Below the pieces are notes generated by a model that did not search any database, was not told where the DNA came from, and saw only the letters and a program-made list of their open reading frames with translations. A program made the translations under genes and the position numbers. Below are positions 9,080 through 57,350 of a DNA stretch of 64,000 nucleotides, in pieces. The stretch's first letter is position 1; the number at the start of each line of letters is the position of its first letter. Origin of the DNA: Octopus vulgaris (Eukaryota); contig OX597828.1 in assembly GCA_951406725.2 (NCBI GenBank), positions 30,442,001 to 30,506,000 of the forward strand, written 5' to 3'.

Positions 9080-10800
9080 ACCACGAGCTACGAAAAATGC
9101 CCACCAAAACAGACGCAAACATCCTCTCTATAAATGAAGAGATTCTAAAATAACTTGAGAACATAAACTAAAGCATAATAGTAAAACTCAACATCTCATC
9201 CATCTACAAAAAACAATGAAGATACCGAAACGAGCAAGGCATCTACCGAAATATATTAGAACCTTGGAAATTTATGCGAAACAATTTAAACATATTTTTG
9301 AAACATTTCAAATCAAGGACAAGAAAACGAGGAATCACATGGGTTGAACAACGTCACATCAACAGTCCAATTATAAAAACGACGTGTTACCGCAATGGAG
9401 AAGACTTCTTTGGAACGGAAAATTTGTGTTTTGGAAAATGATACAAAACCACAACAAAGCAGAGATATAAAAAAAGAGCTTACATCGACACCCTTAATCA
9501 TACACAGCAAATTACAAATACAACCCATCCTGGAAGAACCAGAAGCACAAAGGAAACTTCGAGAAAGAACGATACTAGAAAAAATGAAAATGGAAACGGA
9601 ACTGAGGGCAGAAACAAACGAAGAAACAGTAAAAAGCATAGACGAAGAAATCAACAAGGAACTCAACAAACAAGGCCCCAACACAGAAACAATGCTAAAA
9701 TTATGGAAAGAGGAGAGTGAAAAAGAGGAACTAAAACACCTCCAACGATGGGAAAAGAGCGCTAACTGGTTCTCGACTTACGAAACCAACTTCAAAAACG
9801 AACACAACTCCAACGACACCTTCCTAAAATTAAGAAAAACAAAACCTCAATCTATCATAACTGAACAAACCAACAATAAAATCGAACATACTTCCCTCCC
9901 GAGAAAGTCATTTTGAACGTACCCCATCCTATATAAACGCACCACAAAACACCTGCAGGGATACACCACACTATTTTAGGAACCGCAGTCTACATAACCC
10001 AAGCCACATAAATGCACCACGAAACACCTACAGGGATACACTACACAATTTTAGGCGCCACAATCTTAATAATCCGACTAAAACACACGAACGAAGACTA
10101 TACTCTCAGAACCCACCATGGAAGCATAACAAACAACAAACCCACTACAGAAGAAACAATTACCAACATCATACACCTGAAACACTAAGACGGAGCACGA
10201 GGTTCAAAAACACACTACGAAATAAGTACACCATAAACCCACTATAAAAATTACAGCAACTGGTGACAGATAAACAACACTATTCAACCCAAGCACACCC
10301 ACCATTTTTTAGACCCAGTACACAGAAAAAGGAAAAAACGATGGCACCGGACGTACCAGGGAAACCACAGGCAATGAAAATAGTAAATCTCTCTAATAAA
10401 GAACTTGCACCCAACCAGGTAGCCATACCGTCCAAAGGGCTAAAATTTACACCAGCCCCGCAACGACCAAATTACCATAAAATGAAAGACAATATTTCTG
10501 AATTTTGTAGAAAATTAAGACTAGCCGAGGAATTTTATGACAAGCACATCGCCGACGATTCAAGTGCTAGAAATAGCAGCGACTATACCTCTACAAAAGT
10601 AAAGTATAAAGCACGACCGATTCTCTGAGCACGTCAATCAACCTTATCAACTCACAAATAAACAAAAACCAGACCAAACTTCAGCAAGAGAGAATGGAAC
10701 GACCTTAACGAACTAAAAGAAGATAAAAACCATAACAATCAAAGAGGCAGAAACAGATGACGCAGTAGTCTTAATGAACACCAGGGACTATATAAATCTA
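9080..10800 (+). mobile_element. Penelope-like retroelement, 5' part (coiled-coil N-terminal region plus pre-RT region), decayed
   Basis: Peptides IVNLSNKEL..SKGLKFTPAP..SEFCRKLRLAEEFY (10263-10628) and NFSKREWNDLNELKEDK..TIKEAE..AVVLMNTRDY (10675-10792) are typical of the PLE region upstream of the RT. A-rich sense strand. Confidence 0.8.
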
Positions 10801-39855: not shown

Positions 39856-40882
39856 TTAACAGATATTATATATATAATATTTTAGCGATCTTCTTATGCA
39901 ATTCTGTTTCTGCGTTCTGCATTAGCTAAATTGGGAGTTATACATTTTATGAAATTAGGTAGCACTATTATACTGAATATGGAAATTATCAGGTTGAGGT
40001 ATTTTGCTGAGCTGAAGCAAAAATTGACTCCTCTCACGCCGCTGAAATATTCTAAGACATGATAAACATTATCTTGCACTTAAATATTATTATGTTGCCC
40101 TTTAATGAAAATCATGTTTGTGCGAGCAACATATAAATCTCTATTTTTATAGCAGAACTACTAGAAATCACACGTAACTGTCTTACGTTATGGAAGAACA
40201 ACGTCCATGCTGTAGACGTGCAAGGAACACCTTAGAACACAGATCCTTTCTCTGCCCCATACGTTCTATCAGCAACTAAACAACTTGATAAACCAATAAC
40301 ATAATAGGCAACATGTTTGCACAAAAATAACGGGAAATATTTAAGTGAAGGACAATCTTGATCTCAAGAATAAAATGGAAATATAGAAATAAAATTATAT
40401 TTTTTGAATTTCAAAACGGATTTTCACATGAGCAGAACAATTAAATTATAAGCAGGAATGTTTATTTCGATGCAATGGGTTTTATTTCACAGAATAAAGA
40501 AAAACAGATATATTTTTCAGGTGTTCTTTTTATACTTGCTTGTATAAATATTTTAGTGATAAATTGAGCAATAACATAAAACCAAATGAAACCGTTAGAG
40601 AATTGATATATTCACAGGTTAGCATTATTTTTGTGACGGTAATATTTCAATCTGCTTACGCATGGTGCATGATAATAATGTGTAATAATAATCGAGAAGT
40701 TTGTGATATATATCACATTATATCTCTCAATGCGTCTATCTATAAACCTCAACAAAAATGCATCAAGCAAAAAATATATATTTATTTCAAAAATGAGATT
40801 ATTCGCTGAGAGCAATCAAACTTTCTCGAATAGCACTGTTCATTTTAATAAGTGATGGTGTAAAATACATAACTAAGTTCAT

Positions 40883-40929
<47 letters not shown>

Positions 40930-40931
<2 letters not shown>

Positions 40932-40993
40932 CCCAGCTTGGCCGCAGTCTAACCCCAAGATTCCGAGTTCGATTCCAAGCAGGTGACCTCCAT

Positions 40994-41073
<80 letters not shown>

Positions 41074-41100
41074 TAATAATAATGATAATAATACTACTAC

Positions 41101-41139
<39 letters not shown>

Positions 41140-41280
41140 TAATAACATCGAAAAATACCTTAGGAATGAGAGCGCAGGTTCGAAATTTCCCCAAGACACC
41201 TGATGAAGGCTGGAGGCTATATCAACCGAAACGTTGTGTTGACAACAATCAAGATGAGGACAAATATCCGTCTAATGCAT
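40930..41280 (+). mobile_element. Composite short element: tRNA-like B-box head, (AAT)n, then a hammerhead-containing tail
   Basis: GAGTTCGATTCC at about 40965. (AAT)n at 40997-41143. Hammerhead at 41195-41240. Treating the three parts as one element is an inference. Confidence 0.6.
41195..41240 (+). ncRNA. Minimal type I hammerhead ribozyme with intact catalytic core
   Basis: GACAC-CTGATGA-A-GGCTG(GAGGCTATAT)CAACC-GAAA-CGTT-GTGTT. Stem I GACAC/GTGTT, stem II GGCTG/CAACC (one mismatch), palindromic AACGTT in place of stem III. Confidence 0.8.
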
Positions 41281-43469: not shown

Positions 43470-43677
43470 AACATATTGGTGAATTGAAGAAATGGAGCTG
43501 AACGCAGATTGAACAGAAATCGTTTTATTTCATTCTACACGTGTTTCGAAAGGCACAAATTACCAAATTACCATCGGATTTTGGTAATTTGTGCCTTTCA
43601 GAAACACGTGTAGAATGAAATAAAACGATTTCTGTTCAATCTGCGTTCAGCTCCATTTCTTCAATTCACCAATAATG

Positions 43678-46002: not shown

Positions 46003-47260
46003 TTGATTGATTGATTGATTGATTGATTCTAGTTTTAGCCTATGAGCTGTGGCCATGCTGGGGCACCGCCATTTGGTGTTGCTACTTGGTTTCACTTCAT
46101 GGAGGCTTTCTAGCAACTGCTATTTGGTGCATGAGAGAGTTCGATGCAGCTGCCCTCATCTGCCCCTCCTGCCGTGAAGTTGGTTCATCTGGGACACCTG
46201 ACAGGAAGAGATCCAGCTTCATTTTAAAGACATCTGTATCCACCCCATGCAGGTCTCTCAGGTTCTTCGGGAGGATATTGAAGAGCTGTGGGCCTCGGAA
46301 GCCCAGGCTATCACAGAATCTTGTCCTACATCTTGATGGCAGGTTTGGAGTCCTAGGCACCACGCAATGGCGCCCAGTTCTGGCATTTGCGTAACTCTCG
46401 ATGCCAAAGTTCAGGACACTTCCCTCCAGGATCTTCCAGATGTATATTATGGTATATCTTTCCCGCCTACGCTCCAGGGAATATAATTTTAATCTCTTGA
46501 GTCTTTCCCAGTAGCTTACATTCTGCATAGAGGCTATCTTCTTTGTGTAGCTTCGTTGGATCGCCTCAAGTTCTGTGATCAACTTGACACTGGATGGTGA
46601 CCATAGCTGAGAGCAATAGTCAAAGTGGCTTAGGACAAGTGTCTTCCAGAGGACCATCATGGTTTCTTGTTCTCTTGTTCTAAAGGTTCTAAGAATCCAT
46701 CCAGCCAGCCGTCTACATTTCATTGTCAGTTTAGCAACATGTACATGAAAGGTCGCGTCATCACTCATGTGAATACCCAGGTCACGCACTGATTGTGCCT
46801 CTGGGATTGCAATCCCTCCGGGTCCAGTGTATTCATTGGGTATTGCATTCAGTTTTGCATGCTGATAGTATAAAGCTTGAAACTTTCCAGCATTGAACTG
46901 CATGCTATTGTTTTTAGCCCACTTGTATATTTCGTCCAGCTCACATTGCAGGTGTTTAGTGTCCTCAGGGTTCTGTATTGCCTGTGAAACTTTTGTATCG
47001 TCTGCATAACTTGTGATCGTGGCTCTCTGCGTGGCTGAGGGCATGTCTGAGAGGGCCATTATGAACAGTAGTGGTCCCAGAACAGTGCCCTGCGGAACAC
47101 CGCTCACTATTTGTGTGTTAATGGAGGTGGCCCCATTGGCTACTACCATCTGACTTCTATCCTTCAGAAAGTCATGAAGCCATTCTCCCAGTTTTCCAAC
47201 TATGTTGAGATCACGCAGTTTGTGACATATCATTCCATGATCGACTTTATCAAAGGCCTT

Positions 47261-47263
<3 letters not shown>
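46003..47263 (-). mobile_element. 5'-truncated CR1/L2-group LINE with uninterrupted RT-to-C-terminus frame, 3' UTR and (AATC)n tail
   Basis: Motifs AKAFDKVDH, SGVPQGTVLGPLLF, YADDTK, RDLGI and LYSLERRRERY are open from 47263 to the stop at 46097. (TA)n on both sides. The N-terminus of the listed 424-aa ORF is microsatellite-derived. Confidence 0.95.
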
Positions 47264-47320
<57 letters not shown>

Positions 47321-47779
47321 CATACACAGACACAAACACAGGTACACAGACTCTGACAAACGCACATACACACAAAGCCCATGTATGTATAGCAGAAAGT
47401 GTTCAAGGAAGAAAAATGCAGAAAATGTTTCTTTTGTTGAGATAAAATATTTACGTAATCAAACGAAGTAAACCACGATCAAAGAAATTATTACAATTTC
47501 ATGACTCAGGAAGGCCCAAGTCAAAAGTAGAACTTTACTACTACTAACATAAACATAACGCACATTATGATATCATGAAATTGTAATACTTTCAATATCC
47601 TCTTAGTCATGATTAGCAAAATCGACACCTTCAGACTGAGTAGATGTTTTTTTTAATTATAAAACATACACACAGACACATACACAGAAACACACACACG
47701 CACACACACACACACACACACGCCCACACATATGCACATACACACACACATACACACATACACACACGCGCATATACAT

Positions 47780-50106: not shown

Positions 50107-50575
<469 letters not shown>

Positions 50576-56408: not shown

Positions 56409-56526
56409 TAGGGGAGGGGTTTCTCGAACCCCTTACCCTATACCCGGTGGGACAATGGAGAACGGTATAGGGAAAGGGTTTCTCGAACCCCTTACTCTAT
56501 GCCCGGTGGGACAATGGAGAACGGTT
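56409..56526. repeat. 59-bp tandem duplication, each unit containing a G/C-rich hairpin
   Basis: Two copies of TAGGG..AGGGTTTCTCGAACCCCTTAC.CTAT.CCCGGTGGGACAATGGAGAACGGT. Confidence 0.9.
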
Positions 56527-56920: not shown

Positions 56921-57020
56921 TTGTCTTTATGTGTGCATATATGTATATGTATTTATGTATACCGTATGCGCGTTTCTGTGTGCGTGCGCGACCACGTGTA
57001 TGTTTGTGTGTATGTGTGAG

Positions 57021-57350
57021 TGTGTGTGTAATCGACGAATAGAGCTTTAATGCGTTCTTAAATAAAGCGATCCGTCTTCAACCTCTCTTTTGTGTGTGTA
57101 ATCGACGAATAGAGCTTTAATGCGTTCTTAAATAAAGTGATCCGTCTTCAACCTCTCTTTTGTGTGTGTGTAATCGACGAATAGAGCTTTAATGCGTTCT
57201 TAAATAAAGTGATCCGTCTTCAACCTCTCTTTTGTGTGTGTGTAATCGACGAATAGAGCTTTAATGCGTTCTTAAATAAAGTGATCCGTCTTCAACCTCT
57301 CTTTTGTGTGTGTGTAATCGACGAATAGAGCTTTAATGCGTTCTTAAATA
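57021..57350. repeat. 70-72-bp tandem array, four full units plus one partial
   Basis: Unit (TG)nTAATCGACGAATAGAGCTTTAATGCGTTCTTAAATAAAG(C/T)GATCCGTCTTCAACCTCTCTTT. Confidence 0.97.

Follow-up and report, generated by a model that had tools for sequence, protein, structure and literature searches.

Sequence evidence for a tRNA-like segment in the pLTR of an autonomous Penelope-type retrotransposon of Octopus vulgaris

Introduction

Inverted pLTRs, 5' truncation, two 3' ends and a hammerhead ribozyme are given as textbook marks of Penelope-like elements (PLEs) in published descriptions of the group (10.1101/2021.04.23.441226; PMC3846280). As described for Anolis carolinensis, Poseidon_Ac (PAc) has a single ORF for a reverse transcriptase (RT) with a C-terminal GIY-YIG nuclease, a pLTR that overlaps the ORF start, a hammerhead at that start, AT-rich targets, and two internal start sites of reverse transcription about 110-150 nt into the ORF that give rise to an optional tail (PMC11167929). 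This internal priming was shown in vitro, with reverse transcription beginning at two positions from 111-118 nt into the ORF, and ribozyme cleavage was protein-assisted and dispensable for insertion (PMC11167929). The octopus family examined here resembles PAc in all of these structural traits. It differs in that the account of the PAc pLTR describes neither a tRNA-derived segment nor a microsatellite, and in that the PAc ORF starts at stem II with the cut at +26, whereas the octopus start codon lies before stem I and the predicted cut falls at +70 (PMC11167929).

The minimal type I hammerheads reported from metazoan PLE pLTRs have a helix I of 4-5 bp, an extra base before helix II, the pair G10.1-C11.1 and a palindromic remnant of helix III, occur for the most part singly, in truncated copies, and show little or no cleavage as monomers (PMC4209133). 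The octopus motif follows this description with a helix II of 5-6 bp, and nothing essential sets it apart.

Three further systems combine some of the same parts. The Schistosoma retroposons Sm-alpha and Sj-alpha also place a Pol III-type promoter ahead of a hammerhead in a short unit; as described, they are non-coding and often tandem, with cutting demonstrated, whereas the octopus unit is the terminal repeat of a coding element and its hammerhead is minimal and itself coding (PMC6765202). The TRIMp3 elements Helenus, Ajax and Cassandra likewise carry a small-RNA-derived Pol III promoter in the terminal repeat, with the boxes kept and the RNA structure lost, but they are LTR elements that are non-autonomous and no longer than about 1.3 kb, and whose autonomous partners, in the author's view, lack the Pol III repeat, while the octopus repeat is part of an autonomous PLE (PMC10886601). 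Metazoan non-LTR retrozymes share the type I hammerhead and a relation to PLEs, but are described as promoterless head-to-tail non-coding arrays, in contrast to the dispersed copies, inverted pairs and ORF of the octopus family (PMC7761336; 10.64898/2026.07.22.740005). Our literature search, outside which Repbase and Dfam may already list the family, retrieved no PLE with a tRNA-derived pLTR promoter, and the available text and the supplement of a recent paper on octopus repeats describe no PLE with a tRNA-derived pLTR (PMC13282606). The tRNA-derived, putative promoter segment in a PLE pLTR appears to be new, while a hammerhead SINE in Schistosoma and the Pol III repeats of TRIMs were known.

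Results

Composition of the window copy

The window is a 64,000-nt stretch of the Octopus vulgaris genome (assembly GCA_951406725.2, contig OX597828.1, positions 30,442,001 to 30,506,000). An earlier note on this DNA had proposed that 40930-41280 is a SINE-like, non-autonomous element with a tRNA-like Pol III head, an (AAT)n body and a hammerhead tail that uses ribozyme processing and Penelope-type machinery. The B-box, the (AAT)n tract and the minimal hammerhead were all located where that note had placed them, and the locus resolved into the following features:

40881-40928, no strand: (TA)n microsatellite, the 5' flank and insertion context
40931-40952, plus strand: 22-nt piece from another interspersed repeat that is abundant, outside the Penelope head
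40949-40989, plus strand: 3' half (+35 to +75) of the pLTR segment that is tentatively tRNA-Arg-like
40965-40976, plus strand: B-box word of the window copy (B box proper, 40967-40976)
40990-41143, plus strand: (AAT)n spacer inside the pLTR (5' UTR)
41144-41277, plus strand: 3' part of the pLTR (the "tail"), with 7 differences from the family majority
41166-41276, plus strand: initial 37 codons of the Penelope ORF, with the start codon at 41166 and homology to the N-terminus of the PLE protein P0003
41195-41240, plus strand: minimal type I hammerhead motif, lying within coding sequence, with a predicted cut after 41235 (ORF +70)

The head, which had been taken to span 40930-40996, is chimeric. 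Family homology begins only at 40949, which is +35 of the tRNA-like segment, and the preceding 40931-40952 piece is linked by a 4-nt microhomology to the Penelope copy; matches to it occur in L064, L038, L150 and other loci, there with that repeat's own flanks. Truncation to +35 explains why the window copy has a B box and no A box. The (AAT)n tract, read as 40992-41145 by its period of 3, holds 51.3 copies with 93% matches. At its other end the copy stops at ORF +112, 10-45 nt before the two usual 3' ends of the family, so that it terminates in PLE ORF sequence and not in a LINE-type 3' tail. The longest direct repeat across its ends measured 6 nt and lay inside the element, and no target-site duplication was found. 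The window contains a single copy of the element, without head-to-tail tandem non-coding monomers. This copy is a 5'-truncated, decayed pLTR copy, that is, inert debris.

Several other repeats and open frames were seen in the window: an open frame of 179 codons, coiled-coil-like and possibly belonging to another retroelement (9377-9916, plus strand); a near-perfect, MITE-like hairpin of about 115 nt (43516-43632); a perfect (AAT) x155 tract beside a short ORF fragment (50110-50574); and tandem repeats with a 59-bp unit x2 (56409-56525) and a 72-bp unit x4.6 (57020-57350, 98% matches).

A tRNA-like head joined to a tail across a variable spacer

In other copies the full head is a 76-nt tRNA-like segment with both A and B boxes. 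The claim of a tRNA-like head fits the intact family copies, though not the window copy, from which the A box is missing. Compared with a host tRNA-Arg(TCT) gene, the head is identical at 9/11 positions of the A box, 9/10 of the B box and 30/52 of the remainder, and only 2/7 pairs of the acceptor stem are left; the boxes are kept and the cloverleaf is not. Among 35 tRNA sequences covering only 7 isotypes it was nearest to the host tRNA-Arg genes, which tentatively suggests tRNA-Arg as its isotype. ARAGORN called no tRNA in the window or in any of 30 loci, and Rfam yielded neither a tRNA nor a hammerhead match. The tail contains a further B-box-like word (41178-41187), which was set aside as coding sequence.

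Two unrelated observations were made at host tRNA loci. A hammerhead-like GAAACGTT word lies just before a tRNA-Arg(TCT) gene (L128:1490-1500), with no CUGAUGA upstream, and is likely due to chance; and at a tRNA-Cys locus (L133) at least 7 tRNA-Cys-like genes are found within 3 kb, some with an altered anticodon.

The searched genome comprises 2.8 Gb in 227 contigs, with 2,232 candidates from the tail search and 103 from the head search. Duplicates (23-28 identifiers) were removed before counting variants, stem pairing, head-tail linkage, junctions, T-runs and partner arms. That the head and the tail occur together, separated by a variable (AAT)n, was borne out: a same-strand tail lay within 1.2 kb of the head in 28/29 other head-anchored loci and likewise in 51/62 consecutive, unbiased heads from one contig, and a tail variant and a head variant were linked across the spacer (p = 4e-8). 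The spacer has a median of about 20-28 nt in the family and ranges from 0 to >800 nt, with AAC, AAG and GAT variants also present.

The unit belongs to a Penelope-type element

By its sequence context, we identify the B-box, (AAT)n and hammerhead unit as the pLTR of an autonomous Penelope/Poseidon-type retrotransposon. Two head-anchored loci extended upstream into the end of an ORF with RT-thumb and GIY-YIG-type motifs, and in long copies the stop codon of this RT and GIY-YIG ORF lies 29 nt upstream of the head. The order along the element is RT, GIY-YIG, stop codon, 29 nt, tRNA-like segment, (AAT)n, start codon, hammerhead and 3' ends. When loci were anchored in the ORF, 23/30 reached the head and 20/30 reached head and tail (the 30 include six segmental duplicates of two places); among copies chosen by the 3' UTR of the ORF, the head was present in 41/42 and the tail in 40/42. 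The L116 copy is arranged as pLTR-ORF-pLTR, and L117 begins at head +4 and continues through the tail into the ORF. Together with L118 and the inverted pairs, these copies display pLTRs in direct or inverted orientation, 5' truncation and an optional 3' tail. Head-to-head junctions numbered 83 among the loci examined, and 3' ends fell into two classes (13/29 and 16/29). A long inverted duplication of the 5' part of a Penelope copy, 99-100% identical, was also noticed at L091/L092 (G000:C11 near 56.266 Mb).

The tail corresponds to the first ~130-155 nt of the Penelope ORF. Over its first 205 codons L117 shares 39% identity with the N-terminus of P0003, an 847-aa PLE protein that is 53% identical over the RT-nuclease part; the window codons across the hammerhead align with it at 12/25, which suggests that the ribozyme is kept within coding sequence in this relative too. 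Pfam searches matched RVT_1 in the element ORF, and L189 holds a 569-codon open frame with RT motifs and C-terminal nuclease motifs. None of the Pfam models matched the nuclease part, which we take to be GIY-YIG from its motifs and from its PLE relatives. The element protein has 55 PLE-like relatives, the best 68% identical, whereas a PDB search matched only group II intron-like RTs. The single ORF, as read from its motifs, is that of an EN+ Penelope-like element with RT and C-terminal GIY-YIG. L077 and L189 show no zinc-finger linker separating RT from nuclease, which would fit a tentative placement in Penelope/Poseidon as that clade is described, as opposed to Neptune/Nematis (10.1101/2021.04.23.441226). 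The Penelope-type machinery that had been postulated for the unit is thus encoded by the very element that carries it.

A protein search of the source genome returned this Penelope family only (30/30 loci). The family is present in contigs of four organisms, with the bridge from ORF end to head seen among the listed contigs for 3/4; a search of sequencing runs listed no RNA run containing it, and a metagenome scan with P0003 found no DNA of relatives. No intact ORF was found among the copies examined and long copies are ~90% identical to the majority sequence, so the family is probably inactive now.

The hammerhead does not set the copy ends

In the window, stem I (41195-41199/41236-41240) is followed by CUGAUGA (41200-41206), one extra A, stem II (41208-41213/41222-41227) and GAAA (41228-41231), with the palindrome AACGTT at 41230-41235. 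The core and the palindrome in the place of stem III are thus as had been noted from the letters. Of the two stems that had been called paired, stem I holds with 4 Watson-Crick pairs and one G.U, but stem II carries a C.A mismatch (41210/41225), which elsewhere occurs in 1/45 short and 0/36 long unbiased copies; the energy of stems I and II goes from -13.0 kcal/mol in L012 to -5.8 in the window copy. The window has one occurrence of the core pattern where 0.03 would be expected, and 3/100 shuffles contained one.

Across the family, stems I and II pair in 82-99% of ~155 copies per pair and the core is intact in 69/162 copies. Polymorphism in the core is confined to position 7, the free one (23%), and the same change is a conservative Asp/Glu codon change. 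None of the 11 pairs changed on both sides among 18 distinct rows; no covariation is expected, the copies being neutral descendants of few masters. Neither the free fold of the monomer (z 0.04) nor the co-fold of two copies gave a hammerhead or hammerhead dimer, folding being uninformative for such minimal motifs. Cleavage is predicted to occur only as a dimer or with help from the protein.

We saw no sign of the ribozyme processing of element ends that had been proposed: 5' ends do not pile up at the predicted cut site and copies continue through it. Inverted arms starting inside the tail, counted by hand, began at 89-91 in 3/39 cases and at the predicted +93 in 0/39. Raw RNA reads from three runs of one study, placed on L066, showed no position where many molecules start or end and no canonical splice joint; strands were about equal, and depth climbed toward the 3' end as copy number does. 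These reads are of mRNA type, and in them element transcripts are not separable from read-through. The hammerhead is an ordinary minimal PLE motif, and it does not set copy ends.

Copy number steps up at the start of the tRNA-like segment

Exact 20-mers occurred genome-wide 11,919 times for the tail, 5,148 for the head, 865 for the 3' UTR (-32..-13) and 668 for the endonuclease (-122). Corrected by the respective exact-match rates (23/69, 17/57, 25/55 and 20/58), these counts translate into ~36,000 tails, ~17,000 heads, ~1,900 3' UTRs and ~1,900 endonuclease segments, the last computed by hand. Copy number therefore shows a nine-fold step where the tRNA-like segment starts, with a plateau upstream.

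The ends of individual copies point to the same place. Automated calls of 5' ends overshoot at palindromic junctions or halt at indels, and were corrected by hand where stated. In 62 consecutive heads from one contig, 45 copies (46 after hand correction) ended at -7..+8, none ended from -8 to -19, and 4 by script (7 after hand correction) passed -12. In a second sample of 57 copies anchored at the 3' end and hand-corrected, 22 of the 40 that bear a head ended at -7..+7 and 3 passed -10. Of the near-full-length copies examined, L117 alone has its start at the head. The region -7..+5 is spanned by a 7-nt near-palindrome at which many junctions fold back; this makes the start uncertain by a few bases and could contribute to the pile-up.

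Partner arms of inverted pairs behaved differently according to the length of the insertion. They passed the head in 9/11 long against 4/16 short insertions (p = 0.006), and in 8/10 against 3/25 after hand correction (p = 3e-4). Since the arms of long insertions read through, the head is no built-in block to reverse transcription and the step reflects a template end; its absence from these arms makes it likely that the 5' boundary at the head is the RNA's 5' end.

Short and long copies share their variants

Subfamily variants were found in short and long copies at 17/55 vs 14/33, 11/46 vs 4/37 and 6/46 vs 4/40 (p = 0.36, 0.16 and 0.75), the haplotype comparison being based on 58 short and 42 long unbiased copies. 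Across 253 columns of 180 copies, none of the variants was confined to the short ones, and the near-full-length L122 has the same minor haplotype as many short copies. At polymorphic non-CpG sites of the ORF, 17/26 changes fall at the third codon position, and the main tail variants mostly do likewise.

A tRNA-derived SINE would form a non-coding lineage distinct from its autonomous partner; here the head sits in an autonomous element, the tail is coding and the haplotypes are equal. The sequences give no indication of a separate non-autonomous SINE lineage, at a power that is limited for a small short-only clade. The earlier note's SINE-like, non-autonomous element is accordingly replaced by a pLTR, the head being present in nearly all copies chosen by the 3' UTR and the tail being the ORF start; a Pol III SINE with a hammerhead is moreover already described, in Schistosoma Sm-alpha (PMC6765202). 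A non-LTR retrozyme was rejected because of the inverted pairs, the linkage to an ORF and the single copy in the window. Other tRNA-like SINE heads do occur in the genome (32367-32423 of the window, plus strand, and many loci), 57-70% like the Penelope head, and are a possible source of the captured segment.

Discussion

We favor, with a probability of roughly 0.7, the reading that the window holds a pLTR copy of an autonomous Penelope/Poseidon-type element with a captured tRNA-Arg-like segment that likely served as an internal Pol III promoter. Transcription would start at about -7 to -3 of the tRNA-like segment in the upstream pLTR, and the element protein would prime reverse transcription internally, ~120-155 nt into the ORF, as was shown in vitro for the Anolis Poseidon (PMC11167929). 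Priming at the first pLTR-ORF junction would lead to run-off at the RNA's 5' end after 250-400 nt and yield SINE-shaped short copies, whereas priming in the downstream pLTR would give ORF-bearing copies; the window copy would be a cDNA of the short type that stopped at +35.

In type 2 Pol III promoters the start is expected 10-14 nt upstream of the A box. The start suggested by the copy ends lies at this distance and would match such a promoter, so that the RNA 5' end at the head is probably a Pol III start. Pol III signatures were also sought in the coding strand: its 2,712-nt majority line has 0 T4 runs, a lack that fails to reach significance when codons are shuffled synonymously (P = 0.09 and 0.43); P falls to 0.02 only if the null resets the use of Phe codons. 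A control, the fragment of a LINE-type reverse transcriptase ORF at 46097-47458 of the window (minus strand), equally has 0 T4 runs in 1,161 nt, and we dropped T-run depletion as a Pol III signature. In its boldest form, the preferred reading would have the whole 2.7-kb coding RNA made by Pol III from the captured tRNA promoter and translated uncapped, its strong-stop products having spread through the genome in great numbers as SINE look-alikes. Translation of an uncapped Pol III RNA would call for an unusual route, and we consider this form doubtful.

The same pLTR might instead start its RNA at a Pol II promoter of the Inr/DPE type or at an RNA-processing site, with the tRNA-like segment a passenger from an old SINE insertion. 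The only Penelope promoter studied, that of D. virilis, is described as internal and TATA-less with a DPE, like those of Drosophila LINEs (PMC2377424), which makes it conceivable that Pol II starts at the same position; an ORF needs translatable RNA, and the similarity of other SINE heads in the genome would suit a passenger. Such a passenger would hardly explain why the 5' boundary falls within 7 nt of the start of the tRNA-like segment, or why A and B boxes and the tRNA spacing were kept while the cloverleaf decayed, and we judge a Pol II or processing origin distinctly unlikely. The pile-up could also be a stop of reverse transcription, or a fold-back hot spot, at the small palindrome before the tRNA-like segment, with no RNA end there. 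Many junctions are indeed fold-backs centred on it, and palindromes at inverted junctions are reported as common in PLEs (PMC3846280); yet most partner arms of long insertions go past the palindrome, and in many short copies the junction is with flanking DNA or with an unrelated stretch of the other arm and shows no fold-back, which leaves this explanation barely credible.

Short copies with intact boxes could themselves be transcribed by Pol III and re-mobilised in trans, as a PLE-driven SINE budding from the pLTR. Head-bearing short copies outnumber ORF-linked ones about 9 to 1, many have both boxes intact, and in rotifer PLEs pLTR sequences are reported to suffice for trans-mobilisation (PMC3846280). 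Against this stand the lack of any short-specific variant, the equal haplotype frequencies and variants that remain synonymous, as coding masters would give; moreover, the template of the Anolis Poseidon is described as needing the first 172 nt of the ORF (PMC11167929), and the short copies hold at most about +155. We regard budding as quite improbable.

Little is known about PLE promoters or about how solo pLTRs arise. In this genome the 5' ends of thousands of copies place the template start at a tRNA-derived A/B-box segment, and the coupling of arm lengths in inverted pairs points to two template classes, providing a genomic test of the internal-priming model derived from Poseidon in vitro. 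The ~17,000 SINE-shaped copies in this genome would otherwise be wrongly classed as a SINE family. Should Pol III be confirmed, the family would be an autonomous protein-coding retrotransposon running on a SINE promoter, and a full-length Pol III RNA, if true, would show a route by which a PLE-dependent SINE is born.
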